64,000 nt of DNA from assembly GCA_010906965.1 (NCBI GenBank), contig JAAFHB010000003.1:901-64900 (forward strand), given 5' to 3'. Source of the DNA: Mariniphaga sp. GTDB taxonomy: Bacteria > Bacteroidota > Bacteroidia > Bacteroidales > Prolixibacteraceae. The notes beneath the pieces were generated by a model. It saw only the letters and a program-made list of their open reading frames with translations, was not told where the DNA came from and made no database searches. Below, one piece after another: positions 44,402 through 64,000 of the stretch; position 1 is the first letter of the stretch; each line of letters begins with the position of its first letter. The position numbers and the translations under genes were made by a program.

Positions 44402-46570
44402 TTACTTTGCTTCGGTAATTTCGATAACAGCACTCGTTAAATCGCTGTTGTTTGGCAACGTAAGGCCTATTTTCATCAGGTAATCTCCTGAAAAAGTTTT
44501 GCCTTCTGCCATAAAACGACTCCTTCCATTGGGCATTTTGTTGATTTCTTCCATCCGGTAATTTTTGTTGGCGTCTAAGCCCATTAAACGTACCGGACTA
44601 AACTGTCCGAATGCGCGAGGATGAAGCGAATAAGCGAAAAGTATCGATTTACTCTTATCCACAGAGGTGTACATCAGGACGGCCCGCTCTTCTTCGTATG
44701 GTGAAACGAGGCGGTACAAATCTCCCTTCCAGATAAGATCCTTCAGCCGGTTGTAATTTTGCACAGCCTCTTTGCTGAATTTTAATTCGGCCTCTGTCAT
44801 CTCTTTTACGCGGATATCGTACCCCATTTTGCCCATCATGGCCACATCAGTTCTGAATTTCAGGGACTGCTTGCCCATTGACGTGATGTGATTACAGGAG
44901 GTGATACTCGGGAAGAAATAGGAATATCCCCATTGGATAAAAACGCGTTCGTAAGCATCGGTATTGTCACTTGGCCAGAATTCGGTGAAATATTTCAGCG
45001 CTCCGTAGTCGGTTCTGCCACCACCACCAGAACAAAGCATAATTGGTAATTTCGGATATTTAGCGCGCAGACGTTCCATTACCCGGTAAAAACTGCGTAC
45101 ATATTCAATCTGAACATGCGACTGATTGTCTTTGAGATAGGCTGAATAGGTATTGGTCATCATCCGGTTGCAATCCCATTTGATAAAAGAAATTTTAGGA
45201 TTTTTGGTCAGCATGTCATCTACCAATTTATATACAAACTCTTGAACTTCTGGATTTGTTAAGTCGAGTACAAGCTGATTGCGGTAATAATGTTCATCGC
45301 GGTTTGGAAGTTTAAGAATCCAGTCAGGGTGTTTTTCGTATAATTCACTTTTGGGATTTACCATTTCGGGTTCGATCCAGATACCGAATTTTACCCCTTT
45401 TGCTTCCGCCTGTTCAACCAGATATCCCAGTCCGTGTGGCAATTTAGTGGCAGTTTCCTGCCAGTCACCCAAACCTGCGCGATCATCTTTACGGGGATAC
45501 TTGTTTCCAAACCAGCCGTCATCAAGCAGGAAGAGATCAACGCCTAATTCTTTTGCCCCTCCGAATAATTCGGTTAGTTTACTTTCGTCAAAATCAAAAT
45601 AGGTTGCCTCCCAGTTGTTTAGAAGCGTTAACCTGCTTCCGTTGCCATCGAGCACCCCATAATTTCTTGCCCAGGAGTGGAAATTGCGGCTTGCCTGTCC
45701 TTTCCCCATGTTACTGAAAGTGAACAGAAATTCGGGCGTCACAAAATTCTCGTTTGGATTCAGATGATATTCGGATGCAAAAGGATTTATACCTGAGATC
45801 ATCCTCAAAGAGTTGCTGTTATCGATCTCGAAAAGCATTTGAAAGCTTCCTGTCCAACCCAATGTTCCGGCAATTACTTCGCCTGAATTTTCATCGGCAG
45901 GTTTATTTTTGGCAAGGAAAAATACCGGCGTCTGGTACATATTTGCCCGTGTTCCGAGTTTGCTGTCGATGGTTTTGATACCGCTCGTAAGTTGGCTTTC
46001 TTCCATGCGCATCTCCTTTGCCCAGTCGCCGTGAAACTGTGTAAGCCAGTATTTATCAGCATCGAGATGTAGCATTGAAGAGGCGAAATTGCTTATAATC
46101 ACCGGTTTCTTTTCCTGGTGTTTAATCTCTGTCCAGGTTTTAATAATGTTCTCCTTCTGGAATGCCGTGAAGTTCAAACGAACCTCAACCGGATATTTGG
46201 GATCTTTCAGAAGGATTGAAGTTGTGATCAGATTTCCATCTGTGGTTACCTTCTCATCTGCAAACAACAATTCGAGCGATTGATTTCCATCATTATGCAA
46301 CATTTTTATTGCTGGTTCAAACAGATTATCTGTTCCTGAAGGTATATATGCTTCGTGCAGAGTGGGCAATAATTTGTAGTCTTCTGAATTTTTAAGTTTC
46401 TCACCCAGGTAGACCTGATATAATTTATGATTGTTTGCAACTGAAAGGACCAATGCTGTATTTTCAGTCTCGATTATCAATTGCTTTTGATTAACAGGAG
46501 GTTGCGGAAATTGTGCCGATGCATTCAGAAATAAACGGATGAATACTAATACAAATAAAATCTTTTTCAT
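44402..46570 (-). CDS. GH36 alpha-galactosidase
   Basis: The ORF track starts at 46630; ATG 46570 provides the signal peptide MKKILFVLVFIRLFLNASAQ. Motifs are LLDDGWF, IKWDCN and CSGGGGR. Confidence 0.9.
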   Translation of the reverse strand: MKKILFVLVFIRLFLNASAQFPQPPVNQKQLIIETENTALVLSVANNHKLYQVYLGEKLKNSEDYKLLPTLHEAYIPSGTDNLFEPAIKMLHNDGNQSLELLFADEKVTTDGNLITTSILLKDPKYPVEVRLNFTAFQKENIIKTWTEIKHQEKKPVIISNFASSMLHLDADKYWLTQFHGDWAKEMRMEESQLTSGIKTIDSKLGTRANMYQTPVFFLAKNKPADENSGEVIAGTLGWTGSFQMLFEIDNSNSLRMISGINPFASEYHLNPNENFVTPEFLFTFSNMGKGQASRNFHSWARNYGVLDGNGSRLTLLNNWEATYFDFDESKLTELFGGAKELGVDLFLLDDGWFGNKYPRKDDRAGLGDWQETATKLPHGLGYLVEQAEAKGVKFGIWIEPEMVNPKSELYEKHPDWILKLPNRDEHYYRNQLVLDLTNPEVQEFVYKLVDDMLTKNPKISFIKWDCNRMMTNTYSAYLKDNQSHVQIEYVRSFYRVMERLRAKYPKLPIMLCSGGGGRTDYGALKYFTEFWPSDNTDAYERVFIQWGYSYFFPSITSCNHITSMGKQSLKFRTDVAMMGKMGYDIRVKEMTEAELKFSKEAVQNYNRLKDLIWKGDLYRLVSPYEEERAVLMYTSVDKSKSILFAYSLHPRAFGQFSPVRLMGLDANKNYRMEEINKMPNGRSRFMAEGKTFSGDYLMKIGLTLPNNSDLTSAVIEITEAK

Positions 46571-46654
46571 AGCTGGGGCATTAAAGTATGATTTAATTAG
46601 AGATGATAAAGGTATTGTAATATTTTTCAAATTGCCGAATTTTTAATATGTATT

Positions 46655-49600
46655 TTAAGGTTTCAGAGGCACCGCAGGTTTTTTAATTCCAGGAAAGTCC
46701 GGAATTACTTCTGTCTTATTTTCTTTTACGTCCTTTTGTTGCTCAGGCGTTTTAGTGTACATTTTTAGTACACCACTGGCATGTCGGTAATAATGTCCCC
46801 TGAGATCTTTGGAATAATTGGTCAGAATTTCCTTCCCCAATCCGTTGACATCACCACAACGGAACAGTGCCCTGGCAAGGATCAATTCGCGTAGTGAATT
46901 ATTTCGTGTACTCGTGTCGGTATCGCCGGCAGGAGTCAATCGTTTAGCTGTCTGAATATCCGGCATCGAATGACCCGTTATGCCAGGAAGTTGCAGCAGA
47001 TCATAAAGAATTAAAGCGCCCCTGTTATCTCCGATGGTTTCGAGTGCCATCGCAACTGCCCTGAAATGTGAAAATTCGCTTGTAGTGGTTAGTCTCTTAG
47101 ACATCTTCTCAAGAACTGGAATTGCCTCTGCTCTTTTGGTTCTTCCAAGTGCAATGATTAATCCATCAAGATAGCTGATGCTTTTGCCAAATTGTCCCAT
47201 TCCGGTGTAATTCCAGCCTCCATCCCAGTTGCCGGCATTTTCAACGGCCTCCTGCAATACTTCTCCGCCGGCCGCATTTCCCAGCATACCGAGAATTCTG
47301 GCATAGGTCAACTGATCTTCGGGAGTTTTGGTTTGATTAAATGCGTCAACCATCAATGGCATTGAACGCGTTTTGTCCCAAAGCAGAATTTCGAGCCCAT
47401 CGAGGTTATGGGTAACCGTGGAGGCTGCCTGCCTGATCATTTCATCTGTCGGCGGAAAATTATCCTTGTCGGTAAGCACCGACTCCGGAAGACTTTCAAT
47501 CTTAACAAGTTCCTTTTGGAGTGATGGCAGATCGATATTGCGGATCATCTGATTGTTTTTCGCTGCTATTGCTGCAGCCCATCCTACCGCATAGCCCTGA
47601 TTTTGCAGACAGGGTTGCATCCTGATCACAGGCATTGCATCGCGGTCGGCACTTGCCCCGAGACCAGTCACTGCAATTCCTTCGATTCCCTTTGGTAAAA
47701 GGGCGCGGAAAGGGACATACGCTGTTACGTCGGCTCCGCTGTGTTCGGGTGGCTTCAGATAAAAGAACGAATCTTCCGTGAAACCATGGGTGTCGAATGA
47801 ACTTACATGTATCGAGATAACATCGGGATAGGTCCGGCCATTGTAAATATCCAGTGCTGATATTGTGAAATCCCCAACCATCCGGCGACGTTCGCGTGTT
47901 TGCGATAATTTTCCGATGTCGTACTGGTCCGAAAATTTATCTTTAGCAACAATAAAGGTCCACCAAATGTCGAGCATATCGGTGTCATCGGTAAAAGTCC
48001 AGTCGCTGTTGTTGTAAAAATCGTTTGGGTTTTTAAACGGCATTCCGGCTCCCTGAACGGCCACTGAATTGCCATCTGTGTATATAAATCCTGCTCCTGC
48101 GGCAATTGCAATATCAGAACTTCCTGACGAATCGATCACCGTATGCGCCAGAATTACCCCTTTACCAAATGGAGTTGCTACAATAACCCCTTTCACTTTT
48201 CCCTTGTCAATATAAGCGCCACAACCTAATACGCCGAACCAGATTTCTCCACCGGCATTTCGAATTTCGCGTCTGAAATATTCTGTTTTCCAGTCGAATA
48301 CCCATTCGTCGAGCCTGTTCTTTTGTCGCACATTTCCTTCGCCAATCGCTTTTACACCGTTATCAACCACATTTGTATATCCTTTCCGGTAACCGTGATA
48401 ATAGCGACCTACCATACCCAAAGTTCCGATTCCGCCTAATCCATGCAAATACTCAATTACCATCGTTTTTGCGCCATGGCGTGCAGCACCTACCGCTGCG
48501 GGGGCACCGGCAGTTCCTCCTCCCATTACAACAACATCGTAACGACCAAGAACCGGAAGAGTCGTCGCTTCTGACAGGATCGTACCCTGGCTTAATGAAG
48601 GACGGATTCCGGCAAGTAACTCACCAACATCACCTTTTACGGAATTCGAATGCCGGTTTCCTTTAATCTTCACGGAATTTGACATCGAAGTTGCAGACGC
48701 CATATTTGCTGCTTCTTTTCCGATTCTTTCCCCGATTCGGATCATTCCTCCGGGTTGCAAAAGGTTTGCAGCGATGGTCCGTGAAACATCAGCCATTCCG
48801 TTTAATAAAAAGATGCGACTGACTTTTTGTGGTTGAAAGGGGGTAAGAACAATCTCTTCACTATTGGTCGCTGCTTTGTCAAAGCTACTTTTTCCGATGA
48901 TATGATCGGGTGGAACCTGGAAAAGCAGATCTCCCGATTCAACCTGATTGGAATCCCAGGTGAGATCACGGGCTATTTGCTCTGCATTCGCGAACGACTC
49001 GTAAGCGCCATTTTTCATTTCAATATCCAGCGAATATTCAATGGCTTTATACTCTTTCTCTTTCACAACCACGGGTTGAGGCATCAGCTGTGAAGATCCG
49101 TTTGCAAGCTTTTTCTCATTATTTCCCAATACAATGAACCGGAAATTCTGTTTGCCGGCAGGATAGGGCGTAAACGAGGCCGAAGTAAGGCGTGAAACCA
49201 TTGCCCTCGGCGTTGCATCGATAATGATCTTCGCCTTTATAGCCTGTCTTCCGGAACGGTTGGCGATCACAACACCGGCAGGATTACCCTGGGCATCTGT
49301 CAGCAGATCGGTGACGTAACTTGAGAATAGAAATTCTATTTTATTGTTGATTAATTCATTATCGAGTGTCTGTTTAAACTTTAACGGAACCGGAAGTCCG
49401 TTGCTGAAGAGTTTTTTGCCAAGTGAAGTTTTTAAAGCCTCCTTATGAATGTTCCAGTAACGATAAGTACCACAGACATCTTCACCAAGATAGGTCTCCT
49501 GCGCAACAAGAAAAACCTTTGCTCCGCTTTGTGCTGCACTTACAGCAGCTGCTACTGCTGCCGTTGATCCACCAACCACGACCACATCAACAGTATATGC

Positions 49601-49744
49601 CACAGGTATTTTGCGTTCAGACTGGTAACAAAATTTAGCTGTAATGTTTTCGTTAGCAGGAGCTTCGGGGAAAGCAAACAGATTGCCGGTAGCGAGAACC
49701 GCTGAACCTGTTGCCGTTGATAGAATAAAATCTCTTCGTTTCAT
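46655..49744 (-). CDS. Tat-signal, tandem FAD-dependent-oxidoreductase-domain protein with C-terminal HEAT-like repeats
   Basis: 1029 aa. MKRRDFILSTATGSAVLATG is a twin-arginine signal. Two dinucleotide-binding motifs are present: VDVVVVGGSTAAVAAAVSAAQSGAKV (aa ~52-76) and YDVVVMGGGTAGAPAAVGAARHGAKT (aa ~402-427). The C-terminal ~250 aa is helical and repeat-like (ARILGMLGN..., AIPVLEKMSKRL, AVAMALETIGDNRG). Confidence 0.8.
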   Translation of the reverse strand: MKRRDFILSTATGSAVLATGNLFAFPEAPANENITAKFCYQSERKIPVAYTVDVVVVGGSTAAVAAAVSAAQSGAKVFLVAQETYLGEDVCGTYRYWNIHKEALKTSLGKKLFSNGLPVPLKFKQTLDNELINNKIEFLFSSYVTDLLTDAQGNPAGVVIANRSGRQAIKAKIIIDATPRAMVSRLTSASFTPYPAGKQNFRFIVLGNNEKKLANGSSQLMPQPVVVKEKEYKAIEYSLDIEMKNGAYESFANAEQIARDLTWDSNQVESGDLLFQVPPDHIIGKSSFDKAATNSEEIVLTPFQPQKVSRIFLLNGMADVSRTIAANLLQPGGMIRIGERIGKEAANMASATSMSNSVKIKGNRHSNSVKGDVGELLAGIRPSLSQGTILSEATTLPVLGRYDVVVMGGGTAGAPAAVGAARHGAKTMVIEYLHGLGGIGTLGMVGRYYHGYRKGYTNVVDNGVKAIGEGNVRQKNRLDEWVFDWKTEYFRREIRNAGGEIWFGVLGCGAYIDKGKVKGVIVATPFGKGVILAHTVIDSSGSSDIAIAAGAGFIYTDGNSVAVQGAGMPFKNPNDFYNNSDWTFTDDTDMLDIWWTFIVAKDKFSDQYDIGKLSQTRERRRMVGDFTISALDIYNGRTYPDVISIHVSSFDTHGFTEDSFFYLKPPEHSGADVTAYVPFRALLPKGIEGIAVTGLGASADRDAMPVIRMQPCLQNQGYAVGWAAAIAAKNNQMIRNIDLPSLQKELVKIESLPESVLTDKDNFPPTDEMIRQAASTVTHNLDGLEILLWDKTRSMPLMVDAFNQTKTPEDQLTYARILGMLGNAAGGEVLQEAVENAGNWDGGWNYTGMGQFGKSISYLDGLIIALGRTKRAEAIPVLEKMSKRLTTTSEFSHFRAVAMALETIGDNRGALILYDLLQLPGITGHSMPDIQTAKRLTPAGDTDTSTRNNSLRELILARALFRCGDVNGLGKEILTNYSKDLRGHYYRHASGVLKMYTKTPEQQKDVKENKTEVIPDFPGIKKPAVPLKP

Positions 49745-49829
49745 CAGTAGATAATTTGTTTTTTAATTGCCTTATGGATCACCCGTATCATCTTCATTCG
49801 TGAATGTGAAGGGAAGAATCAAGGGTGTT

Positions 49830-51275
49830 TCATGAAATAAGTTTATCAGGTTGTTCTCTTAATTTTCTCCGGTAAAGTTCGAATACTGTAAATGCTACGA
49901 TAGCGACAATAAAGCCGATTGAAAGTGAAATATTGTAGGACAAGTTAAACCCTTCGGGAGCAAAAAATAAATAGGAAGTTATTACGATGGTCATGAAAAG
50001 GGCAGGAAGGAGCGTTACAAAGTGGGTCTTATGCTCTCTGACCAGATAAACGGTTATCGTCCATAGTACTACGGCTGCAAGGGTTTGGTTCGACCAGGCA
50101 AAATACCGCCAAATGATGGCGAAATCAACTTGTGTGAGGACATATCCAGCCATAAAAAGCGGAATACTGATGAGCAATCTGTTTTTTATCGGGCCTTGCT
50201 TAAAATTCAGAAAATCAGCAACAATCAGACGGGCGCTCCTAAATGCGGTATCGCCTGAAGTGATAGGTGCTGCAACTACGCCAAGTAAAGCCAATGCTCC
50301 GCCAACACGTCCCAGCAACGAGTTTGATATTTCGTTGACTAAAAAAGCAGCGTTCCCTTTTTCTGCCAGCATCACTTCATTTAACTGACCAACACCGCCA
50401 TAAAATGCCATTCCGATAGCAGCCCAAATCAGCGCGACAATACCCTCTGTAATCATCGCACCATAAAATACGCGCCGCCCCAGTTTTTCATTTGTAATAC
50501 ATCGGGCCATCAACGGTGATTGTGTGGCGTGAAATCCTGATATAGCACCACAAGCGATCGTAATGAACATCATTGGGAAGATGGGAAATTGTTCGGGCTG
50601 ATCGTGAAAGTTCGTCAGGTTACTCATCGTCAGTTCAGGAATATGGTAGCCTCCGACAAACAGCGCGGTAATTAATCCTATCGCCATAAACAGTAGGGCA
50701 AAGCCAAAAACCGGATAAATCTTACCGATGATTTTATCAATCGGAAGCAGTGTGGCTAATACATAATAAAAGAAGACCACCCATACCCAAAAATTCATTG
50801 TAAGGTAATCAGGCGTCAGACTGGCAAGGATTTTTGCGGGTCCCATAATAAAAACAGCACCTACAATAATCATTAAAATCACCGTAAATCCTCTCATTAT
50901 CTGTTTGGTATTTCTGCCAAGATAAATACCGACAATTTCGGTGATGCTTAAGCCGTTGTGTTTAATTGAGAGCATCCCGGAAAAATAATCATGAACGCCA
51001 CCAGCAAATATTGACCCTAATACAATCCATAAAAAGGCAACTGGCCCCCACATGGCACCTGCAACTGCGCCAAAAATAGGACCCAATCCTGCAATATTAA
51101 GAAACTGAATCAAAAATACCCTCCACCAAGGCATTGGTACATAGTCGACACCATCAGTCAGTTTGTAGGCTGGAGTCTCACGTTTCGGGTCAATACCGGC
51201 AATTTTTTCCAGGTACCTTGAATAAAAGAAATACCCCAGGAGAAGTACAAGGATTGATAAAGTAAATGTAATCAT
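49830..51275 (-). CDS. cstA: CstA-family (carbon starvation protein A; peptide/pyruvate) transporter
   Basis: 481 aa, polytopic. It carries the conserved N-terminal CstA block FLNIAGLGPIFGAVAGAMWGPVAFLWIVLGSIFAGGVHDY. Confidence 0.85.
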   Translation of the reverse strand: MITFTLSILVLLLGYFFYSRYLEKIAGIDPKRETPAYKLTDGVDYVPMPWWRVFLIQFLNIAGLGPIFGAVAGAMWGPVAFLWIVLGSIFAGGVHDYFSGMLSIKHNGLSITEIVGIYLGRNTKQIMRGFTVILMIIVGAVFIMGPAKILASLTPDYLTMNFWVWVVFFYYVLATLLPIDKIIGKIYPVFGFALLFMAIGLITALFVGGYHIPELTMSNLTNFHDQPEQFPIFPMMFITIACGAISGFHATQSPLMARCITNEKLGRRVFYGAMITEGIVALIWAAIGMAFYGGVGQLNEVMLAEKGNAAFLVNEISNSLLGRVGGALALLGVVAAPITSGDTAFRSARLIVADFLNFKQGPIKNRLLISIPLFMAGYVLTQVDFAIIWRYFAWSNQTLAAVVLWTITVYLVREHKTHFVTLLPALFMTIVITSYLFFAPEGFNLSYNISLSIGFIVAIVAFTVFELYRRKLREQPDKLIS

Positions 51276-51482
51276 ATTGTGAAAGTTAGCTGATTAATTT
51301 TTATGTAACTGTGGATAAGTTTATGCTTTGAAACGGTTTGATAATTGATTAAAAGCGGATGGCAGCTGGATTGTGGCATATTGACTGATTTGTATTTTAA
51401 TTTATATAATAAAATTTTTTATTTGGTATATTTTAATTAAGTCTATTTAAGCTGCTATATTTTAATTGATTACAGTTATATC

Positions 51483-51631
51483 GCCACGAAGTGGCTTGTT
51501 TCCTTGATTACGATTATTGCTACAAAGATTCAGCTGCTACGCAGCCATTTTCGATGCAATGTAGTTGCAATCCCGCATATACGGGATTGTAGATTAATGT
51601 ATTGTGTCTATTTCGAAAGCAACGTAGTTGC
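51483..51631. repeat. Cluster of REP-like short stem-loops, same family as 25955-26041
   Basis: The hairpins are GCCAC-GAA-GTGGC (51483-51495), GCTGC-TAC-GCAGC (51533-51545, preceded by CTACAAAGAT), CAATCCCG-catata-CGGGATTG (51568-51589) and GCAAC-GTA-GTTGC (51619-51631). Confidence 0.6.
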
Positions 51632-51688
51632 GACATTTTCATTTTTCAAATTTTTACCAGACAACATTGAATTTTTTTATTTTCCTTG

Positions 51689-52828
51689 TTATTGTATTTT
51701 CTTTTGATACCGATTGAGTTGTTTTTTAAGATCGGATGATTGAACGGGTAAATTTAGCAGAAAATAGTAAACCCTGTTTGCTACATTTTCATTTTTACTG
51801 TCCAGCAGTGTGCAGAGTTTAAGTTGATCCTCGTAATCAAAATTGTATCGTTTTTCAAGTAACAAAAGTATCACATTCACAAGGTAATAATTGTCATTGT
51901 TGATCAGTTTCATTAGCTCTTGCGCAACTGGTCTGGTTAATTTTTCAGATTCGCGGATATATTCAATGGCCAGGTTTTTGATTCTGAATTCTTCGCTTTC
52001 GAGCAATTTAATTACCTCTATTTGCAAATGCTCCTTGTCTATTAGGCTGCAATGTTTTAAGAATTTCAGGGCTTGCCTGGAAGATTGGTAATTTTCACTG
52101 TGCAGCATGGTAATGGCTGGTTCAATGAATTGTCTGTTGTCCATGTCGGATTCGCTGATCCAACGAAGTGCAATTATTTGATTGTATGGATCCATATTCT
52201 GTAAGGTATTGGTCAGTAATTGATTTGATAGCAAGTGTTTTTTTGTGTAATTCATTATGCTATCCCTGGTAACGCCATAGGTAAGGTGCCAAATCGTGTA
52301 GGAAGTATAGGCTGCTTCGGGTACGATCCATGGCGAGAGATCGGGAAGGGTAGCTCCTGTAATTCCATCGGATTTTTTAACGACTTGTTTTTTAGGATGA
52401 ATTTCTTCCGGCGAGTAGAATCCGAGTTGAGAGGTGGAATCGGAAAGTATCTCACTAAGTCTTTTATAGTCGCTTTCCAAAAATGGGACATGTTCCCTTT
52501 TGGTTAGCTCTTCACCCGGAGGAAGTGAATATCCAATGTATTTTCCGGTCACTTCCCAATACAGCGTGATATCAACAGGGCGACACAGGCTATCGATGCA
52601 AACGGCAGTATAAATATTCCGGCTGAATGCCTCCGGCTGGCTTGTGGCTGAGAAATAGATTGTCAGTGTATCATCAGGGACAGAGTCCATGAAATTGATC
52701 AATACTTTGGTCGTTTTAGCAGCTGCGTCAGGACGGAAGGGTGCATCTATAAACATCCGGCCCTTTTCGTCAGGCCGGATGCTTCCCATTAAAAGCAGGG
52801 CAAAAAATGTAATAAAGCCTTTGCTCAT
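51689..52828 (-). CDS. Secreted hypothetical protein: FMN_bind-like N-domain (DGITGAT motif) plus HEAT-like helical repeats
   Basis: 379 aa with signal-like FITFFALLLMGS. DGITGAT at aa 154-160 (nt 52349-52369) fits the [S/T]GA[S/T] flavinylation motif. The C-terminal half is repetitive and helical. Confidence 0.55.
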   Translation of the reverse strand: MSKGFITFFALLLMGSIRPDEKGRMFIDAPFRPDAAAKTTKVLINFMDSVPDDTLTIYFSATSQPEAFSRNIYTAVCIDSLCRPVDITLYWEVTGKYIGYSLPPGEELTKREHVPFLESDYKRLSEILSDSTSQLGFYSPEEIHPKKQVVKKSDGITGATLPDLSPWIVPEAAYTSYTIWHLTYGVTRDSIMNYTKKHLLSNQLLTNTLQNMDPYNQIIALRWISESDMDNRQFIEPAITMLHSENYQSSRQALKFLKHCSLIDKEHLQIEVIKLLESEEFRIKNLAIEYIRESEKLTRPVAQELMKLINNDNYYLVNVILLLLEKRYNFDYEDQLKLCTLLDSKNENVANRVYYFLLNLPVQSSDLKKQLNRYQKKIQ

Positions 52829-52831
52829 TTG

Positions 52832-55948: not shown

Positions 55949-55953
55949 ATAAT

Positions 55954-58383
55954 TTATTCTGTAACGTTGATGGTAACATTCGTTTCTTTTAGCCATGGGG
56001 CTGCAAATTTCAGGGTTACTGTACCAGTTTTGCCTGTTGCCTGCACATAAGCCAACAGCCGTCCATGATATACACGCTGTACATTATCGTTGTAATCGCC
56101 CATGTCTGAATTGTTGCTTGCTTCGAGGCCCAAAAGAGTAGCAGGTCCTTCGATTGTGCACGTAACTTCGTCTTCTGAAATCATAACCGGAACCCCCTTT
56201 TCGTCAACCACCTGCAACACAACCTGGGCAAGTCCCCGGTTTTTGCTGACAGATGAAACATCCGACTGAGCTGTTAAAGCATATGGCCTGTCAGACGATT
56301 GCAATGCGTAATTACAGATTGCTTTTTCATCCTTATCCAATCCGATAACTTCCAGTTTTCCTTCATGGAAAGGAATATCCCAATAGATGATACCCTTGAT
56401 GTCGTCATATTTCTTAACTTCTCCAACCTGCATGCCGTTTAACATCAGTCGGGATTTTGCCGTATTGGTATAACAAACAACCCGAATCATCTCTCCCTCT
56501 TTGTAGTTCCAGACAGGCCATGCGTCCATTGAAAGATGATTGTTTTTCGCAGGCTGATGGTAGGTTCCGATATAGGTAACTGGTTTTACGCTCCACAATG
56601 CCTGGCGGAAATGACCCCTTGGTTTAATAAATCCCCCAAAATCGAGGAATCCTGAATAGAATCCCCTTGATGGCCAGGCGCCCGATTCACCCAGGTAATC
56701 AATACCTGTCCAGATAAACTGACCGAAAATATATTCTGTATCCCTCACAACCTTCCACGACTCCATGCTGTGTCCGTTTTCACTTCCAAATATGACCCGT
56801 TTCGGATATTTTGCATGATCCTGGGCATAACGATCTTCCGTATAATTATATCCTGTGATGTCAAGCGTTCCGGGATAATCTGTTTCGTTCGACATGACGA
56901 CTCCTGCCAATCCGGCAGTAACCGGGCGGGATGAATCAAGACTACGAACAATGGCGGCCAGTCGTTTGGCGATACCACCTAACCGTTCGGCTTTGGGGTT
57001 ATTGGGCAAATAGCCTCCCTGCACTGGCTGGTTGATATTGGCATGATCGAGTACCGGATGTGTATACGGGTCATTGGGATAATCGACCTCGTTACCAATG
57101 CTCCACATAATTATTGAAGCATGGTTCCGGTCGCGCCGGACCATATCCGCAAGATCCCTGTCGCTCCATTCATTAAAATACGAAGCTGCTCCCTGAAATC
57201 CGGGTATGCCTTTATTCCATCCTTTTATCCATTTTTTCTTTGCAAATTCCCATTCGTCAAAAGCTTCATCCATAACAAGAATGCCTAATTCATCACACAA
57301 TTCGTACACATCGGAGGCTTGCGGATTATGGGTCATTCGGATGCCATTGCAACCCATATCTTTCAGCGTAAGCAACCTTCTTCTCCAGACTTCGCGGGGA
57401 ACAGCCGAGCCTAAACATCCGGCATCGTGATGAATACATACACCTTTCACCTTTGTCCATACACCATTTATTGCAAGACCTTTATCTGGATCGAAAGTCA
57501 ATTCACGCAACCCAAGTTGCTGCTCATTCTGGTCAATTACTTTCCCATTTTGCTGAACGACTGTCTTTAATGTATAGAGATTAGGCTGTTCCAACGACCA
57601 GCGTTTAGGCGAATGAACAGTGATTGTTTGTTTGATTATTCCTTTAAGTTTAGCGCCAACCTCCAGATTTTTTGACCCTTTGGCGACCACTTTCCCTGAT
57701 GCAGGATCAATGATCTCGTGTAAGATTTTGACAGTAGCACCAGATGCAAGACTATTGTTTATCGTAGTTTCGACTGAAACCTCCGCCTTTTTATCTGTAA
57801 TGTTGCTGGCGTTGAAGTAAACTCCCCATAAATCGATATGCACCGGAGAAGAATAAACAAGATAAGCATCTCTGTAAATTCCCGATCCGGAATACCAGCG
57901 GGAGTCAGCATCCAAAGAATGATCGACGCGTACTGATATCAGATTCTCCTCCCCATATTTTAAAAAGGGTGTCAGATCGTACATAAACGCGATGTAGCCA
58001 TTTGGACGTTTACCAACCGATTGCACATTGATGAAGACTTCACTTTGGTTATAAACGCCTTCGAAATAGATAAAGACACTATTCCCTTTTTCAGTCGCGG
58101 GTACTGTGAAAGTTTTTCGGTACCAGGCAATTCCACCCGGAAGATATCCGGTCGCGCTGGCTTTGTCGGGACTATAAACCCCTTCCACGCTCCAGTCGTG
58201 AGGCAGATTGAGTTGTCTCCACTTCGAATCGTCTAAGCCAGTCTGAGCCCCATCTTTTAAATCAGACAGGTTAAACCGCCAACCTTCGTTAAAAAGGACT
58301 GCTTTGCCAAACTGTGGCTTTGCCTGAAGTGCACTTCCCATGAGAAAAAATATGGCAGCGCATAAAATACCTTTTAGTTTCAT
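55954..58383 (-). CDS. GH2-family glycoside hydrolase (beta-galactosidase-like)
   Basis: 809 aa with a signal peptide. It has the sugar-binding domain motif NLPHDWSVEG, the acid/base region MWSIGNEV and C-terminal Ig-like domains. Confidence 0.9.
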   Translation of the reverse strand: MKLKGILCAAIFFLMGSALQAKPQFGKAVLFNEGWRFNLSDLKDGAQTGLDDSKWRQLNLPHDWSVEGVYSPDKASATGYLPGGIAWYRKTFTVPATEKGNSVFIYFEGVYNQSEVFINVQSVGKRPNGYIAFMYDLTPFLKYGEENLISVRVDHSLDADSRWYSGSGIYRDAYLVYSSPVHIDLWGVYFNASNITDKKAEVSVETTINNSLASGATVKILHEIIDPASGKVVAKGSKNLEVGAKLKGIIKQTITVHSPKRWSLEQPNLYTLKTVVQQNGKVIDQNEQQLGLRELTFDPDKGLAINGVWTKVKGVCIHHDAGCLGSAVPREVWRRRLLTLKDMGCNGIRMTHNPQASDVYELCDELGILVMDEAFDEWEFAKKKWIKGWNKGIPGFQGAASYFNEWSDRDLADMVRRDRNHASIIMWSIGNEVDYPNDPYTHPVLDHANINQPVQGGYLPNNPKAERLGGIAKRLAAIVRSLDSSRPVTAGLAGVVMSNETDYPGTLDITGYNYTEDRYAQDHAKYPKRVIFGSENGHSMESWKVVRDTEYIFGQFIWTGIDYLGESGAWPSRGFYSGFLDFGGFIKPRGHFRQALWSVKPVTYIGTYHQPAKNNHLSMDAWPVWNYKEGEMIRVVCYTNTAKSRLMLNGMQVGEVKKYDDIKGIIYWDIPFHEGKLEVIGLDKDEKAICNYALQSSDRPYALTAQSDVSSVSKNRGLAQVVLQVVDEKGVPVMISEDEVTCTIEGPATLLGLEASNNSDMGDYNDNVQRVYHGRLLAYVQATGKTGTVTLKFAAPWLKETNVTINVTE

Positions 58384-58394
58384 TCGTCGATGTT

Positions 58395-59615
58395 TTAAAT
58401 CTTTAAATATATTCTTCGAAAAAAATTCTCATCAAAAGGATATAACCAGAAAAATTGAAGCGGAATATCAGGATAATTTTCTGTAAATATCTTGTATTTA
58501 TTTAAATTCACCTGGTTATTATCATATTTCACTTCAATGGCTTTTAATTGTTCATTTTCCGAAAGTACAAAATCAACTTCATTCCCTGCACTCGTGCGCC
58601 AATATTGAATTGCGTCTGTGCCAATTTTATCGGCAAGAATTCTGAAAACAGTATTTTCCCATAATTCACCTTTGTCTGTTCTTACAGCCATTGGTTGAAA
58701 ATTGTTCAACAAACAGTTTCTTAATCCGGTGTCAAGCATAAAAACTTTGGGCATCTTCACCAGTTCTTTTCGCAGATTCCGGAAAAATGGTTTTATAAGT
58801 GCGATGTGAAAGCACTTCTGCATGATGGTGAGAAAATTATCTACCGTTTCATTCTTTATGCGCAAGGTTGATGAAAGTTCATTTATATTTACCATATTGC
58901 CTGTCTGACCAGCCAGAATCCTAAACAGGTTGTAAAAGGCTGTTTCGCTGACAACACCCGACTCCAAAATGTCCCGTTTTACAAATGAGTCCCTGATCTC
59001 CTTTAGTCGATTTATCTTTTCCTGCTTATCGGGTTCTGTTACTATTGCCGGATAACCACCATAGATCATATACGATTCCCATTCAACACGAAGGTAATCG
59101 ATAAGTGTACTTTTGAAGTCTCCGTTTTTAAGCAGTTGATCTCTTTCTTCTTTGAGATCTGTTTTACCGCTTAATTCGAGATATTCATCAAACGAACAAG
59201 TGTACAATTGAAATATTTTTTTTCTGCCTGCCAGCGAATCCCTAAACTGATTATCGATGTAAAAAGCGCTGCTTCCTGTTGCCACCACCTTAATTTGTTC
59301 TGAATGTTCATCATATAAGAGCTTCAGAAAATTGGAGGGATCATCCAGGTATTGAATCTCATCGACCAGTGCAACTGTTCTTTTGTTTGGTTCTGGCATG
59401 AATTTCAATAAGTTCAGGGGATTTTCGTTCAATTCAGCAAGTATGGTTTTGTTTTCAAGATTCAGAAAAACAACCGGAATCTCCATTTCTTTGCAATAAA
59501 CCTCCAGCTGTTTCAACAAGGTTGATTTCCCGGTTTGCCGTGCCCCCGTGATGATGGTAAATTCTTTTTTCAAAAGGTGAGCCTGTAAATCTTCGAATAG
59601 CTTCCTGCGTATCAT
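58395..59615 (-). CDS. AAA+ ATPase (AAA_14) with C-terminal DUF4143 / PD-(D/E)xK-like domain
   Basis: 406 aa with Walker A GARQTGKST and Walker B VALVDEIQ. The C-terminal GNEVDFVL...AIEVKY pattern resembles a restriction-endonuclease-like motif. The gene is visibly AT-rich. Confidence 0.85.
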   Translation of the reverse strand: MIRRKLFEDLQAHLLKKEFTIITGARQTGKSTLLKQLEVYCKEMEIPVVFLNLENKTILAELNENPLNLLKFMPEPNKRTVALVDEIQYLDDPSNFLKLLYDEHSEQIKVVATGSSAFYIDNQFRDSLAGRKKIFQLYTCSFDEYLELSGKTDLKEERDQLLKNGDFKSTLIDYLRVEWESYMIYGGYPAIVTEPDKQEKINRLKEIRDSFVKRDILESGVVSETAFYNLFRILAGQTGNMVNINELSSTLRIKNETVDNFLTIMQKCFHIALIKPFFRNLRKELVKMPKVFMLDTGLRNCLLNNFQPMAVRTDKGELWENTVFRILADKIGTDAIQYWRTSAGNEVDFVLSENEQLKAIEVKYDNNQVNLNKYKIFTENYPDIPLQFFWLYPFDENFFRRIYLKI

Positions 59616-59667
59616 GGCATTTAGTTTTGTAACAAAAATAAGAAGTTTTTATTTGATTTACAAGCGA

Positions 59668-59748
59668 GGGGGTAAATTATCGGATATTTTACCCCCTGCA
59701 TAGGGTAAATTATCGGATATTTTACCCCCTTCATAGGGTAAATTATCC
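59668..59748. repeat. 33-bp tandem repeat (2.4 copies), each unit containing an inverted repeat GGGTAAA-N13-TTTACCC
   Basis: The three copies are GGGGGTAAATTATCGGATATTTTACCCCCTGCATA, then GGGTAAATTATCGGATATTTTACCCCCTTCATA, then the partial GGGTAAATTATCC. The array lies 53-133 nt upstream of the ATPase start codon. Confidence 0.85.
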
Positions 59749-59896
59749 CAAATGCTTAAAAATAATTGTGAAATATATGTTAAAACATTGTGTATGAGCT
59801 ATATTTGCAATTTTAAATTTTTGAAACTGAATTTTGTTTGATAACATCGAATAAAATTGGATGCTAATTGGCAACAATATTTAAAGTCTCAGAATA

Positions 59897-62392
59897 TTAT
59901 TCATATTTCAGCCAGGCTGTTGCGTTGCAATCCTTATCGGCAGCAAAACGAATCCAGCGCGACTGGAACGTTTCGGGAAAGCTGTATTCAAAAGTTTCTC
60001 CCGGCTTAACAGTCACCACCTTGTAATTCATCCACGGACCATGGCCAATCGGTTCTACTTCGATGGTGAAAGTAACAGTCTCTTTCGAATCGTGCGAAAG
60101 TTTCAAACTGCGTTTGTCGTAAAAGCCAATCAGGTAAGGGTCTGAAGCTATTCCGGCTTTCACAGCCGAGTTTTTCCAGGGGCCACCTTCGCCAACTGGT
60201 TTGCCCATTTGCCATAAATCGTCAATCACACCCGCCCAAACAGCCGCTTTGCCATCGGCTGAAGTTACCACATGTGGGTTCCCTTTTGAAGCGACAGCGT
60301 CCAATCCTGTCATAATCAACATTCCGCGGTACGAGGCGTAATCGAAAATGCGGAAGTTGTGAGAGGCAACCGGACGGATTTTGGCAAAACCATCCGCATT
60401 TTCTGCAGGAAGTTCATATAAAGTTCCTGAACAATTTAGCAAATCACGTTCGGTTGCTACTTCGCGACAAACGCGCAAAACGGAGCTGTTGGTCAGATTG
60501 GCATATTTCGCATTTCCTTTTGGAAGCCTCCAGCGACGACCCGATTCATCGGTAATAAGTACCGAGGCATCATCGATGGTAATTACATTTTGCGGAATGG
60601 CAAATTTTTCTCTGATAAAGGAAGCGGTCTCCTGATCCTCTTTTTTTACGAGGTTCATCAATGAATCGAGCTCATAATAACCACTTTCATTAAATGACTG
60701 ATCGGAAACAGTTCCTGCCAGAACACCCAGTTTACGGCGGTTATTGCCCAATCCCCAGAGTAATCCGGCATTAGTTTCGGTTTCAGAAACATTGGCCAGG
60801 CCAGCGAACATTGGATCGGCAGCAGCAGCGCGTTTGTCTTTTTGTGCATACGAAAAATGAACCGTGGCTTTTGTGGCTTTATCCACTTTTACACGAACCC
60901 ATTCGCCAGTTTCTGTAGCAATAAAAAGTGCATCAGCTGATTGGTTAGGATTAACAGAAACCGATTTCAAGGTTTTCCAGTTATTGTCACCTTTTTGGTC
61001 CACTTCAAAAGAAAACGATACGGCTTGCTTTCCTTCATTTTTGATCCACGCAGAGCGAACATCCCATCCTGCAAAGAGGAATGGTTCAGATACCTCGCCA
61101 GCTTTAATTTCTTCTGAAATCCACACTGCACCTTCGGCGGTGTTTGGTCCTAACTGATCAGGTTTTTCCGTTGATGTGAACCACAGGTTAGAATTAGATT
61201 GTCCAGGTCCTTCAATATTGCCCTTCACTTTTCGCTTATTGAGAAACTCCTTTTGAGCTGAATCATCGCAGCCGAAAACGAGTTGGTCGTTCCATCGGGC
61301 AAAGTCGCCAATTACTTTAAGGTAGGCTGAGCGTGGACGAATACCTGCGGAATTACCGGACGTGAATGACACCGGAAAACGCCAAAACATGCCATGCATG
61401 GTCATCAGGTAATCCGGTTTTTCGGCAGTGCCAATGTCGCGGATACGCGGCCATTCGGTGTTCCAGCCGTGGGCGCCATCGTAACTGTGGCTCGCTTTTG
61501 GTAAACGGTAAAAACTCCATTTCCCGTTGCCTCTGACCCCAACCAATACAGATTTATGATCCCAGCCGTTCACCCAGATTGGATCGGTTTCAGGATTTGA
61601 GTTGCCATAGATTCCTCCGGGACCGGTAACTTCGGTAAACTGGTTTCTTCTGATCACTTTCCACTCTTTCCCGTTCCATTCGGCCAAGACGCCCGACTTA
61701 ATATCAAATTTTTTCAACGCTTCGGGAGATGGCTCTCCGTTGTTGCTGTACACCATTACTCCCTGGCCGGAATAGAAGCCTTTCCCGTGCGCCCCTGGCA
61801 TCAGAGTTCCCTCCAAATTACCGTCCGTATCTTTACTCTTTTTTCTGGTAACATTGAGATCTTCGAATAACATCCTGGAATGAAGCGTCTTCACATCTAA
61901 TTCATAAAAACCCTCCTCCATGGTGCCATAGTAGATTTTATTTGCCGGATCGGTTAAATGCCGGGCATTCCCGGTATGACGACCTGGCATATCTTTGTAT
62001 GAGATCACGCGGACATTTCGGGCAGAATCGATGGCATACGGACCAACAAACAATTGATTGCTTTCCTTGTGAATCATGCGGTTAGCCGGAGTACCCCCGA
62101 TACTTTCAGGCCGGACAATTTTTTGAAAATCGGGTGTGATTTCATAGAGTTTATCCGATGATCCAAATGGAAGGTGAGGGCCGTAAGTGATTACCCATAA
62201 ACGATCTGCCCAAGGAACTACTGCACCTGTTCCGCATTCACCTTCGTTGTTGTAGTAGGCCAGTGTTGGATGGATGCCGCTGAATGAGGATGCTGTTTGC
62301 TTTTGTTTTTCCTGAACGGTACATCCGGTAAAAAGTATTACGGCCATCAACGAAATTAACGATCGTATGTTCATTAAATTATTTTTCTTCAT
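59897..62392 (-). CDS. Orphan 831-aa lipoprotein of unknown function in PUL (candidate novel glycan-active enzyme or binding protein)
   Basis: The ORF track starts at 62431; ATG 62392 gives MKKNNLMNIRSLISLMAVILFTGC with a lipobox. It has good coding character (about 50% GC). I recognised no family motif. The C-terminus is beta-sandwich-like. Confidence 0.7.
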   Translation of the reverse strand: MKKNNLMNIRSLISLMAVILFTGCTVQEKQKQTASSFSGIHPTLAYYNNEGECGTGAVVPWADRLWVITYGPHLPFGSSDKLYEITPDFQKIVRPESIGGTPANRMIHKESNQLFVGPYAIDSARNVRVISYKDMPGRHTGNARHLTDPANKIYYGTMEEGFYELDVKTLHSRMLFEDLNVTRKKSKDTDGNLEGTLMPGAHGKGFYSGQGVMVYSNNGEPSPEALKKFDIKSGVLAEWNGKEWKVIRRNQFTEVTGPGGIYGNSNPETDPIWVNGWDHKSVLVGVRGNGKWSFYRLPKASHSYDGAHGWNTEWPRIRDIGTAEKPDYLMTMHGMFWRFPVSFTSGNSAGIRPRSAYLKVIGDFARWNDQLVFGCDDSAQKEFLNKRKVKGNIEGPGQSNSNLWFTSTEKPDQLGPNTAEGAVWISEEIKAGEVSEPFLFAGWDVRSAWIKNEGKQAVSFSFEVDQKGDNNWKTLKSVSVNPNQSADALFIATETGEWVRVKVDKATKATVHFSYAQKDKRAAAADPMFAGLANVSETETNAGLLWGLGNNRRKLGVLAGTVSDQSFNESGYYELDSLMNLVKKEDQETASFIREKFAIPQNVITIDDASVLITDESGRRWRLPKGNAKYANLTNSSVLRVCREVATERDLLNCSGTLYELPAENADGFAKIRPVASHNFRIFDYASYRGMLIMTGLDAVASKGNPHVVTSADGKAAVWAGVIDDLWQMGKPVGEGGPWKNSAVKAGIASDPYLIGFYDKRSLKLSHDSKETVTFTIEVEPIGHGPWMNYKVVTVKPGETFEYSFPETFQSRWIRFAADKDCNATAWLKYE

Positions 62393-62488
62393 GGTAAATT
62401 GATATTTATTGGTTCTAAAAAAGGGTGACAATAAGCCACCCTTTTAATTCGATCAGAAAATTCCTGATTATGGGTTTATTGGTCTTGT

Positions 62489-62521
62489 AATGACCGGAAG
62501 ATTTCTGAACTCCCGGTCATT
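62489..62521 (-). other. Intercistronic 9-bp-stem hairpin between susD-like gene and the orphan lipoprotein gene
   Basis: AATGACCGG-N15-CCGGTCATT. No T-run follows it. Confidence 0.5.
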
Positions 62522-62534
62522 AAACCTTTAATTG

Positions 62535-64000
62535 TTAATATCCTGAGTTCTGCTTCAGGTTTGTGTTGATCAAAACTTCCTTTGATGGAATTGGCCACAA
62601 GTATTGTTTGGTGGCATCAAAATTTCGGATAGCGCCCCGTTTGACCAAACCGGCACTGTACATCGGCGCAAAATCAGCGACTCCATCGTCATCAATTTCT
62701 GGTACTTGAGGGAAAAACCACAAACCTGGTTTTACGACTTTCGTGCGTAAATCGGCAGGATCCAGCATATTGTAATTAGGAATGTTCAACACTTTAGCCG
62801 CCAATTTCCAGCGGATCAAATCCATGTAGCGTATACCTTCAAGGGCAAACTCCATGTGTCGCTCGACGCGAACAATTTTACGAAGTTCTGTTTTTGCAGT
62901 TGATGTTACTGCGGGATACAACGATGTTTGTGTAGCGGATACTTTATAAGCACGTGCACGAACTTTATTGATGGCATCAGGTACCGTTTGATCAATTTCT
63001 CCGAGCTCAATCTTAGCCTCGGCGTATATGAGCAAAACATCAGCATAACGAATAATTATCTTATCAGGTTCTGGCTGAAAAGAGTTCAGCAACCAATCGC
63101 CGTCGATCCCTTTTTTCCAGAGAAGCGCATTATACGAAGCGTACTGAGCAACCGAACGGGTATCTTTGTTATCCACTCTAGTATTTGTTGAGATTTTCAA
63201 TACTTTAAGAGAATCGGGATGTGGCTGATAGATGAAGTCTAAATGCGGCGTCTGAAATTCAACAATGGTAGCGGTACAACGTGGGTCACGGTTTTTGAAC
63301 GGTGAATGGGGGTCAAATAGAGGAGATTCGTCGATCGGCAGACCATCTTTACAAAGGAAAGCGCAAAATAATTCCCATGTTGGGAATTTGGCACCCCAGC
63401 CACCTGCGTTACGATTAATATAGTCCTGACAACCTCCCAACGTAACTTTTAGGACGACAGATCGAGGCAAGGCAAATATAGTTTCAGCTGAATTTTTCGT
63501 TTTAGACAGAAATAAGGTTGAAAAATCGGTATATAAACTGTAATTGCCCATATCGATGCATGCCTTAGCTGCATCGCGTGCAACTGCAAAATCACCCATA
63601 TACAAGGCGATACGCGCTTTCATAGCCAGTGCCGCGCCTTTGGTGGCCCGTTTTAATTCATTCGATCCATAACTGACCGGCAGATTAGCTGTGGCAAAAT
63701 CATAATCATCATAAATTGCCTTCAGAATTGTAGCTTTCGGCGTTTGAGATAATGCAAATGACTCTTCCAAAGTCATTACTTCGGTAAAATACACCACATC
63801 ACCAAAATGGGCAATAAGTGTTGAGTACTGTGCAGCGCGAACAAACCGGGCTTCAGCTTTAAATTTATTCAGGGTTGCATCAGGAATTGTACCTGCAACT
63901 TTATCGACATTTGCCAATATGGTATTTGTTCGTGAAATTGCTTTATAGGAATTGGTCCAGAGCGTATTGACAAAGTCTGTCTGCCCATTAATTGTTGCAC
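62535..64000 (-). CDS. susD: SusD/RagB-family lipoprotein (partial; 5' end beyond window end)
   Basis: The ORF track starts at 63917, but the frame stays open to 64000 (hand translation ...ATINGQTDFVNTLWTNSYKAISRTNTILANVDKV...). Typical SusD blocks are ARFVRAAQYSTLIAHFGDV and LLIYAEAKIELGE. Confidence 0.9.
   Translation of the reverse strand, partial: ATINGQTDFVNTLWTNSYKAISRTNTILANVDKVAGTIPDATLNKFKAEARFVRAAQYSTLIAHFGDVVYFTEVMTLEESFALSQTPKATILKAIYDDYDFATANLPVSYGSNELKRATKGAALAMKARIALYMGDFAVARDAAKACIDMGNYSLYTDFSTLFLSKTKNSAETIFALPRSVVLKVTLGGCQDYINRNAGGWGAKFPTWELFCAFLCKDGLPIDESPLFDPHSPFKNRDPRCTATIVEFQTPHLDFIYQPHPDSLKVLKISTNTRVDNKDTRSVAQYASYNALLWKKGIDGDWLLNSFQPEPDKIIIRYADVLLIYAEAKIELGEIDQTVPDAINKVRARAYKVSATQTSLYPAVTSTAKTELRKIVRVERHMEFALEGIRYMDLIRWKLAAKVLNIPNYNMLDPADLRTKVVKPGLWFFPQVPEIDDDGVADFAPMYSAGLVKRGAIRNFDATKQYLWPIPSKEVLINTNLKQNSGY

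Follow-up and report, generated by a model that had tools for sequence, protein, structure and literature searches.

Conserved flavoprotein genes in a SusC/SusD locus of an uncultured Mariniphaga and their possible role in periplasmic glycan oxidation

Gene content of the locus

The stretch of DNA analyzed here (the window, 64,000 nucleotides) represents nearly all of a 65,226-bp contig from a metagenome-assembled genome of an uncultured Mariniphaga, family Prolixibacteraceae. It carries a probable polysaccharide utilization locus (PUL) that encodes three predicted flavin proteins, which we call FAD1, X and FAD2. Comparison with related loci indicates that a PF12831 flavoenzyme followed by X forms the conserved core, and that the three glycoside hydrolase (GH) genes of the locus are recent additions.

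All genes between positions 38884 and 64000 are, according to open reading frame (ORF) calls and Pfam, located on the minus strand. In the direction of transcription, the first is a SusD-family lipoprotein gene (62535-64000; SusD_RagB, E 2e-39), whose frame stays open to the window end and whose 5' end lies beyond it. It is followed by the gene of an 825-831-aa lipoprotein ('orf844', 59897-62374) with the lipobox signal ...ILFTGC, by an AAA_14/DUF4143 ATPase gene (58395-59615; Pfam) and by a beta-galactosidase-like GH2 gene (55954-58383; Pfam GH2 domains). FAD1 (54086-55948), a secreted PF12831 flavoenzyme (E 6e-73) with an extra N-terminal beta domain of about 160 aa, precedes a 393-aa GH76 enzyme of the alpha-1,6-mannanase family (52832-54013; Pfam E 5e-44) with the motif YDDN. 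Next comes X (51689-52828), an exported 379-aa protein with the motif SDGITGATL and a helical-repeat C-terminal half. Beyond an intergenic hairpin cluster of 413 nt (51276-51688), the locus continues with a CstA-family inner-membrane transporter of 481 aa (49830-51275; Pfam CstA, E 8e-65), with the 1029-aa FAD2 (46655-49744; PF12831, E 2e-61), which comprises the twin-arginine translocation (Tat) motif MKRRDFIL, two PF12831 modules and a HEAT-like C-terminus, and with a GH36 enzyme of the alpha-galactosidase family (44402-46570; Pfam Melibiase, E 9e-106). A gap of 579 nt separates GH36 from a second SusC/SusD pair on the same strand (SusC 40746-43823, SusD 38884-40734; Pfam). The first-pass annotation of this DNA had given the same order from SusD to GH36, and ORF calls and Pfam placed every gene it listed accordingly. 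GH2, GH76 and GH36 are co-directional and all score above their Pfam cut-offs; comparison with NCBIfam added no specific function to the window proteins. Identical protein sequences are on record as NEW80891.1 (FAD1), NEW80889.1 (X), NEW80887.1 (FAD2) and NEW80894.1 (lipoprotein).

Conservation of the flavoprotein genes

Related loci (L numbers) were gathered by exact-protein look-ups, by scanning one genome per species with an alignment of X and by a metagenome scan, the latter run with a narrower X alignment than the most diverse one. The window proteins and chosen neighbor proteins were mapped onto these loci. Clustering of X at 95% identity yielded 93 non-redundant loci, 37 of which reach 5 kb or more upstream of X and 3 kb or more downstream of it and are referred to as well flanked. 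Neighbors were detected by phmmer with a limited query set, and the raw counts given here are lower bounds.

Among the well-flanked loci, a PF12831 gene is present within 10 kb of X in 33 of 37, and in 27 it is located immediately upstream of X on the same strand. SusC was found in 17/37 and SusD in 18/37, CstA in 15/37, sulfatases in 8/37 and the 825-aa lipoprotein in 7/37. The order FAD1-X-FAD2 is kept in nine loci (L003, L004, L006, L009, L013, L015, L017, L018, L025), and in L004 CstA, FAD1, X and FAD2 form a stand-alone cassette without carbohydrate-active enzymes (CAZymes). Two cultured species, belonging to Aquipluma and Sunxiuqinia, encode an extracytoplasmic function (ECF) sigma factor, FecR, SusC, SusD, the lipoprotein, FAD1, an X-like protein (and PF12831), CstA and one GH. 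Judged from these comparisons, the conserved unit appears to be a PF12831 flavoenzyme followed by X, often accompanied by FAD2, CstA and an upstream SusC/SusD pair, and in Prolixibacteraceae by the lipoprotein. The co-conservation of FAD1, X and FAD2 across related loci agrees with the earlier view that the three flavin proteins act as a functional unit. CstA and the lipoprotein, which had been overlooked, are conserved partners rather than bystanders. We regard AAA/DUF4143 and the hairpin cluster as passengers.

In different lineages, the junctions FAD1/X and X/FAD2 are insertion hot spots. The inserts comprise a lipoprotein that looks GHL10-like by eye (L006, 11141-12280) and others in L013/L027 (6595-7482), L015 (2391-7392) and L030 (6803-8272); across lineages, the cargo of the junctions also includes a Bro-N protein, a DNA methylase with a helicase, and a polysaccharide lyase. 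A second 379-aa ORF of L006 was considered as a duplicate of X and dismissed: with an hhalign probability of 0.2% it is not related to X, and it looks by eye like a GHL10-type lipoprotein.

Protein X as a candidate flavin carrier

Protein X possesses a signal peptide and has no Pfam match, even if its N-terminal domain is searched alone at E<=10. A word-based search retrieved 90 relatives, none of them named, and an exhaustive profile search extended the family to 1,158 clusters at 50% identity (E<=1e-3), 479 of which match at E<=1e-30. Across 81 representatives with a mean identity of 27%, only seven columns are invariant. D154, A159 and T160, which belong to the window motif DGITGAT, are among them, and the motif Dxx[ST]xAT is present in 137 of 154 representatives. 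The target motif of ApbE has been described as [S/T]GA[S/T] (PMC8238504), and X carries a predicted ApbE flavinylation site at Thr160 within SDGITGAT.

The AlphaFold model of X (mean predicted local distance difference test score, pLDDT, 81.7) consists of a beta N-domain, a disordered loop that bears the motif, and a C-domain of helical repeats modeled with confidence. The helical part, residues 190-379, has a pLDDT of about 90, and its best Foldseek matches are alphaRep/HEAT and armadillo designs; with the whole model, this HEAT half dominates the matches. Searches of the PDB with the X profile and with the motif segment returned neither NqrC nor RnfG and nothing else of relevance. We regard X as a new family with three features: an N-domain of predicted beta structure, an ApbE-type motif with invariant residues, and a C-domain resembling HEAT repeats. 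A role as electron relay carrying flavin mononucleotide (FMN), which had been suggested from the motif before, is plausible and well supported: D, A and T are invariant, and distant members of the family have ApbE, NapH-like or MATE (multidrug and toxin extrusion) neighbors.

As for the latter, two X proteins are fused to a MATE (MatE) transporter (P0406, P0454), and in L105 (6238-7545) X is encoded directly after a MATE gene. This pairing may indicate export of flavin adenine dinucleotide (FAD) to supply periplasmic flavoproteins; the MATE protein Bfe exports FAD in Shewanella (PMC3551548). Another aspect of X is a VCxDxxC pair in the beta N-domain, C77 and C82 (window 52583-52600), which is invariant or nearly so: among 154 representatives, 101 have it. 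The pair might form a disulfide or belong to a metal or redox site, and none of the explanations offered below accounts for it.

The PF12831 flavoenzymes FAD1 and FAD2

The match of FAD1 to PF12831 scores 246.9 bits and spans positions 1-413 of the 416-position profile; the protein shows the motif GGGMAG and has the signal peptide MKNLRILLFFTFICSLPSTLFSQ. FAD2 reaches 208.9 bits with two modules (GGSTAA and GGGTAG), the second of which is 19% identical to FAD1, and its C-terminus gives HEAT_2/HEAT_PBS matches below cut-off. Signs of export were found throughout the set: besides the Sec-type signal peptide of FAD1 and the signal peptide of X, the N-terminus of FAD2, MKRRDFILSTATGSAVLATGNLFA, displays the Tat motif RRDFIL followed by a hydrophobic stretch, and a Tat motif is also present in that of the paralog FAD447, MKRRDFFTKAALAGGALALG. 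In most Prolixibacteraceae loci, FAD2 orthologs of 82-93% identity are located downstream of X. A more distant ortholog (1171 aa, 36% identity) stands next to ApbE and X in L031.

The N-domain of FAD1 gave a single match, sub-threshold, to Golvesin_C (E 0.0033; 17.9 bits versus a cut-off of 31.6). However weak this match is, the same type of domain occurs three times in a GH141-like protein of L113 that is secreted by the type IX secretion system, and this makes the earlier label of the FAD1 N-domain as similar to a carbohydrate-binding module plausible at the sequence level.

The search for FAD1 homologs scored at least 8,000 candidates, and PF12831 proteins are abundant in PULs. Searches of PDB sequences with FAD1 and FAD2 gave matches confined to the Rossmann motif. 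The family had been said to be often mislabeled as xanthan lyase; among the source names of the relatives listed this name is absent. Paenibacillus XalA was considered as a PF12831 origin of that label and discarded, as a review lists XalA as a member of polysaccharide lyase (PL) family 8. In some loci (L009 4550-6007 and 6095-7969, L018 218-2050), a shorter paralog of the lipoprotein (485 aa, 36% identity) and a second FAD1 paralog of 45-47% identity stand in tandem.

Genes of the 3-keto pathway families DUF1080 (3keto-disac_hyd), AP_endonuc_2 and Gfo/Idh/MocA adjoin X or a FAD1 homolog in about eight loci, and single components of this pathway were seen near X or FAD1 homologs in L023, L030, L037, L057-L060, L091, L092 and L116. 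In L037 (Petrimonas sulfuriphila CP073276.1, 3365-21902), a FAD1 homolog of 66% identity lies behind SusC/SusD, no X is present within 10 kb, and the neighbors comprise three Gfo/Idh/MocA genes, AP_endonuc_2, a 1128-aa protein with HEAT and double DUF1080 domains, GH2, GH123 and a sulfatase.

Glycoside hydrolases and glycan context

From the GH genes, the first-pass annotation had tentatively proposed a PUL for galactose-decorated, galactomannan-like alpha-1,6-mannan, in which GH76, GH36 and GH2 would work together with flavoproteins whose keto-sugar products unlock resistant linkages. All three GH genes indeed look intact and run in the same direction as the flavoprotein genes, the same arrangement is found in the closest relatives (L025, L040-L044), and galactosidase-type genes (GH35, GH2, GH36, GH97) recur in several related loci.

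The distribution of the three genes speaks against this proposal. GH76 is present in all four loci whose X is at least 80% identical to that of the window, and in none of the 52 loci whose X is less than 80% identical and that extend at least 3 kb upstream. Its counterparts in L025 (9164-9997) and L026 (4973-5806), the closest relatives, measure 277 aa and lack about 75 internal residues (approximately 200-273 of the window GH76); they may be decaying. GH76 thus looks like a recent insertion between FAD1 and X. Orthologs of GH36 and GH2 are equally restricted: the former follow FAD2 only in L025, L026 and L043, and the GH36 after CstA in Sunxiuqinia is unrelated; the latter occur only in loci with X at least 80% identical. 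Against NCBIfam GalA/GalB, GH2 scores about 545 bits and stays under the cut-off of 900. AAA_14/DUF4143 accompanies GH2 in L001, L025 and L044, which are among the closest relatives, and in no other locus; it is probably a passenger gene that travels with GH2. We therefore read GH76, GH36, GH2 and AAA/DUF4143 as recent additions, and GH2 and GH36 as lineage-specific accessory enzymes.

Elsewhere, other enzymes take their place: GH97 (L021), GH3 (L016), GH78 with GH5 (L068), GH88 (Aquipluma), polysaccharide lyases (L027, L030), sulfatases (L031 and many marine loci) and a sialidase-like BNR protein (L022). A glycan context as such is general but not universal: in roughly half of the well-flanked loci, SusC/SusD genes occur in the vicinity of GHs, lyases or sulfatases. 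Consequently, the flavoproteins are not co-conserved with GH76, GH36 and GH2, an outcome that the first-pass annotation itself had named as refuting its hypothesis, and with the orthologs of these three confined to the closest relatives, the galactomannan guess lacks comparative support. Three recently added genes cannot reveal the substrate of this locus, all the more as the module stands elsewhere beside sulfatases, a rhamnosidase, GH3, GH97 and lyases, and we consider a dedicated galactomannan PUL improbable.

Lipoprotein, SusC/SusD and CstA

The 825-aa lipoprotein had been described as an orphan. However, it has at least 7,490 homologs at E<=1e-5, all of them unnamed, the top 120 with 73-85% identity. 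Comparison with Pfam, NCBIfam and PDB sequences gave no match. It is located between SusD and FAD1 in nine loci (L009, L016, L018, L021, L034, L035, L044, L065, L090), and one homolog is fused to a GH43-like domain. The AlphaFold2 model is all-beta (pLDDT 67). A fold assignment was attempted and given up, as Foldseek returned generic beta-propeller and beta-sandwich structures (GH43/GH32, a hybrid two-component system sensor, phage tails) with template modeling (TM) scores of 0.1-0.25. In Prolixibacteraceae, the lipoprotein is a core partner of the module.

Orthologs of the window SusD share 64-87% identity and have SusC upstream, in L021, L034 and L035 directly so; in Aquipluma and Sunxiuqinia, ECF sigma and FecR genes are found upstream of SusC/SusD as well. 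SusC and the sigma/anti-sigma genes that belong to the window SusD thus probably lie beyond the window end. The second SusC/SusD pair (38884-43823) is probably a separate transcription unit, and it is not present at the corresponding position in L003, L006 and L007.

CstA scores 220 bits with Pfam and 112 bits with the NCBIfam pyruvate/H+ symporter equivalog, the cut-off of which is 1188. In L080, X is followed by a GntP-family (gluconate-type) permease (5742-7088), a second kind of carboxylate importer. Pyruvate released from lactyl-ether sugars was considered as a substrate for CstA and set aside, as nothing beyond the transporter family speaks for it.

Hairpin cluster and other features of the window

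The gap between X and CstA (51276-51688) contains about five short hairpins, one of which is terminator-like (51547-51531). The first-pass annotation had called it a cluster of repetitive extragenic palindromic (REP) elements. The hairpins are real; a dispersed REP family did not become apparent, because both copies of the 13-mer GCAACTACRTTGC lie inside the gap, with none elsewhere in the 64-kb window, and the gap measures only 43 nt in the closest relative L025. The cluster is a window-specific insertion and possibly serves as terminator or RNA-stability element. It might uncouple transcription of CstA, FAD2 and GH36 from the genes upstream. A scan for sigma-70 promoters and terminators gave counts equal to the shuffled expectation, with a consensus that is not the Bacteroidota one.

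Further along the window, GH127, GH51-like, GH20 and DUF5009/HGSNAT genes are located on the plus strand (26681-35154). In the relatives L003, L006 and L007, FAD2 is directly abutted by GH20 and DUF5009 (in L003 also by GH127), so that GH36, the second SusC/SusD pair, a PD40 protein and DUF6057 look inserted between these genes and FAD2 in the window. At 6791-13089 an efflux operon of the MacAB/TolC type comprises HlyD, MacB/FtsX, OEP, a 415-aa protein and an ABC ATPase. Pfam gave no match for the ORFs at 5889-6650, 11067-12314 and 17171-18025.

Discussion

At these loci, evolution has preserved a set of flavoproteins as a unit, and not the three sugar-cutting enzymes. This suggests that bacterial carbohydrate breakdown includes a redox step that is as yet unstudied. 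Because the PF12831 enzymes have a dedicated and probably flavinylated partner in X, real electron transfer is much likelier for them than a non-redox role. On balance, we lean toward the interpretation that FAD1, X and FAD2 belong to a flavin-based module for periplasmic sugar dehydrogenation that is built into PULs of varying specificity.

Glycan fragments, perhaps first bound or cut by the surface lipoprotein, would enter via SusC/SusD. In the periplasm, the PF12831 enzymes would oxidize the sugar by dehydrogenation at a hydroxyl group or at its reducing end, and oxidation at C3 would lead to a keto-sugar, at C1 or C6 to a sugar acid. Electrons would pass from FAD to an FMN bound covalently to Thr160 of X, where it would be installed by an ApbE encoded elsewhere in the genome, with the HEAT regions of X and FAD2 as potential docking surfaces. 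From X they would reach the quinone pool through a membrane partner, which might be NapH-like as in some relatives and would have to be encoded outside the window. The oxidized and probably acidic product would be imported by CstA; the frequent presence of CstA and the one GntP permease of L080 are a hint toward such an acid. The interchangeable GH, PL and sulfatase genes would set the glycan that each locus handles.

Several observations weigh against a sugar dehydrogenase module of this kind. The neighbor counts stand without a background rate beside them. Neither the literature searched, on PF12831, FAD enzymes in PULs and flavin-dependent glycosidases, nor the PDB by sequence yielded a PF12831 member whose reaction is known, as the first-pass annotation had already stated, to its knowledge, for this family; consequently we infer the substrate, the reaction with its oxidized position, and the direction of electron flow. 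Regarding X, there is no match to Pfam FMN_bind, and hhalign aligned its motif and the following helix with VDGLSGAT of Vibrio NqrC (T225) over 32 columns at a probability of only 16%, for which reason we treat X as FMN-carrier-like and not as a proven FMN_bind member. ApbE adjoins X in only two of the 93 loci (L031 and L068). Within the 64 kb of the window, Pfam revealed neither ApbE nor a NapH-like protein nor a cytochrome gene, so that the membrane electron link is missing there. For the earlier idea of keto-sugar formation, DUF1080, AP_endonuc_2 and Gfo/Idh/MocA beside X or FAD1 homologs in about eight loci give contextual hints only, and none of the three families is encoded in the window. 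Finally, no CAZyme and no SusC/SusD genes are found near the cassettes of L004 and L011, and the substrate may thus be a small molecule.

These CAZyme-free cassettes lead to the question whether carbohydrates are involved at all. One might envision a module for peptides or for glycated or otherwise modified small molecules, taken up via SusC/SusD or porins, with CstA as peptide or pyruvate transporter. CstA is a conserved partner, the L004 cassette consists of CstA, FAD1, X and FAD2, the neighbors in L011 are phosphoenolpyruvate carboxykinase, an aminotransferase and glycerate kinase, and peptidase genes adjoin X or the cassette in L018 and L064. However, the above-mentioned half of the well-flanked loci with SusC/SusD and glycan-active genes, the likeness of the FAD1 N-domain to the module present thrice in a GH141-like enzyme, and the lipoprotein homolog with its GH43-like domain all connect the module to glycans. 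A non-carbohydrate role thus seems very improbable to us.

If sugars are the substrate, electrons might still flow the other way. The PF12831 enzymes would then be periplasmic reductases for a respiratory acceptor derived from the glycan, such as the C=C bond of a 4,5-unsaturated uronate or another enoate or keto compound, and they would receive electrons of menaquinol by way of a NapH-like protein and the X-bound FMN, an arrangement like that of flavinylated fumarate and urocanate reductases. A NapH-like PF12801 iron-sulfur (Fe-S) membrane protein adjoins X in five of the 93 non-redundant loci, e.g., L019, L027 and L050, and shows transmembrane segments, CX3CP motifs and four ferredoxin motifs. 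In L027 (8825-9970), an internal GRRLFIGSAVGAAAA precedes the ferredoxin motifs; this protein resembles a NapH-NapG fusion, and its Fe-S domain may thus face the periplasm. The possibility that CstA and NapH-like proteins are alternative modules was considered: none of the loci compared has both, but the numbers are too small to support this claim. Characterized NapH-type systems mostly supply reductases, which favors the reverse direction, yet NapH-like systems serve oxidases too (PMC8238504). Lyase genes (Hepar_II_III/Ulvan_lyaseC, PF14099) or GH88 lie by the cassette in L027, L030 and L034, and the hosts are largely anaerobic or facultative Prolixibacteraceae. However, most loci, including the window, are without a lyase; PF12831 is not the FAD_binding_2 family of the reductases, and similarity to fumarate reductase is limited to the Rossmann motif; and importers such as CstA or GntP are more easily reconciled with product uptake than with a respiratory dead end. 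The reductive direction is therefore unlikely in our view, though a serious rival, and we prefer the oxidative one.

Going beyond the single locus, we tentatively suggest that PF12831 and X represent a widespread, undescribed route of Bacteroidota and some Planctomycetota from periplasmic glycan oxidation to membrane electron transport. It might be a flavin-wired counterpart of the 3-keto pathway, or its missing electron sink, with an acidic product taken up by CstA or GntP and with X as a new class of ApbE substrates. This wider proposal is more doubtful than the oxidative module itself. If the oxidative reading is true, the degradation of glycans in anoxic sediments and in guts would supply respiration with electrons in the periplasm, and a candidate answer would be at hand to how periplasmic sugar oxidoreductases are recycled. 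Cultured hosts of the system exist with Aquipluma nitroreducens and Sunxiuqinia dokdonensis. Independent of function, three large unnamed families, namely X, the 825-aa lipoprotein and the short CstA, are flagged for annotation.

Comparison with known systems

The locus joins a PUL with an extracytosolic electron-transfer system of the ApbE type, a combination that we did not find described. Among the latter systems, the 'NapH-like' class of ApbE-flavinylated proteins (Meheust 2021, PMC8238504) is similar in that an exported protein with an [S/T]GA[S/T] motif is used as a modular relay with different periplasmic oxidoreductases and that ApbE or PF12801 stands beside some members. X differs by its lack of a match to the FMN_bind, DUF2271 and DUF3570 models and by its HEAT-like C-domain, and the system as a whole by its fixed PF12831 partner and its location in SusC/SusD loci. 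The text of PMC8238504, as far as it was searched, makes no mention of PF12831, HEAT or Bacteroidetes.

The oxidation-elimination-hydration (3-keto-glycoside) pathway of Bacteroides and Alistipes (BT2157-2160/AL1-AL4) likewise employs periplasmic Tat-exported oxidoreductases on glycosides, and the work on it leaves unexplained how the periplasmic oxidoreductase is reoxidized (10.1101/2024.03.25.586180; PMC8121099). The two systems meet in those approximately eight relatives in which genes of its families lie beside X or FAD1 homologs. In contrast, its oxidase is a Gfo/Idh/MocA protein with bound nicotinamide adenine dinucleotide (NAD), a flavin relay has not been described for it, and the window is devoid of its families.

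Flavinylated fumarate and urocanate reductases share with the present system an FAD enzyme in the cell envelope and an ApbE-installed FMN as the point of electron entry. In these reductases, however, the FMN domain is fused to the enzyme, which belongs to PF00890, and similarity to FAD1 and FAD2 is restricted to the dinucleotide-binding motif.

Periplasmic FAD sugar dehydrogenases of the glucose-methanol-choline (GMC) type, such as glucoside 3-dehydrogenase, FAD-glucose dehydrogenase and gluconate 2-dehydrogenase, come close to the proposed mechanism. They combine a Tat-dependent FAD subunit with a dedicated electron-transfer subunit that leads to the respiratory chain, and the resulting keto-sugars or sugar acids are then imported. 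Yet they have the GMC fold instead of PF12831, their relay is a cytochrome c that is not flavinylated, and they are not known to be part of PULs.

With canonical Bacteroidota PULs under ECF sigma/anti-sigma control, the locus shares a gene order in which a surface lipoprotein and enzymes of the periplasm come after SusC(STN) and SusD. What sets it apart is that the conserved 'enzymes' are flavoproteins together with the lipoprotein and not GHs, and that CstA replaces the permease of the major facilitator (MFS) or sodium solute symporter (SSS) type.

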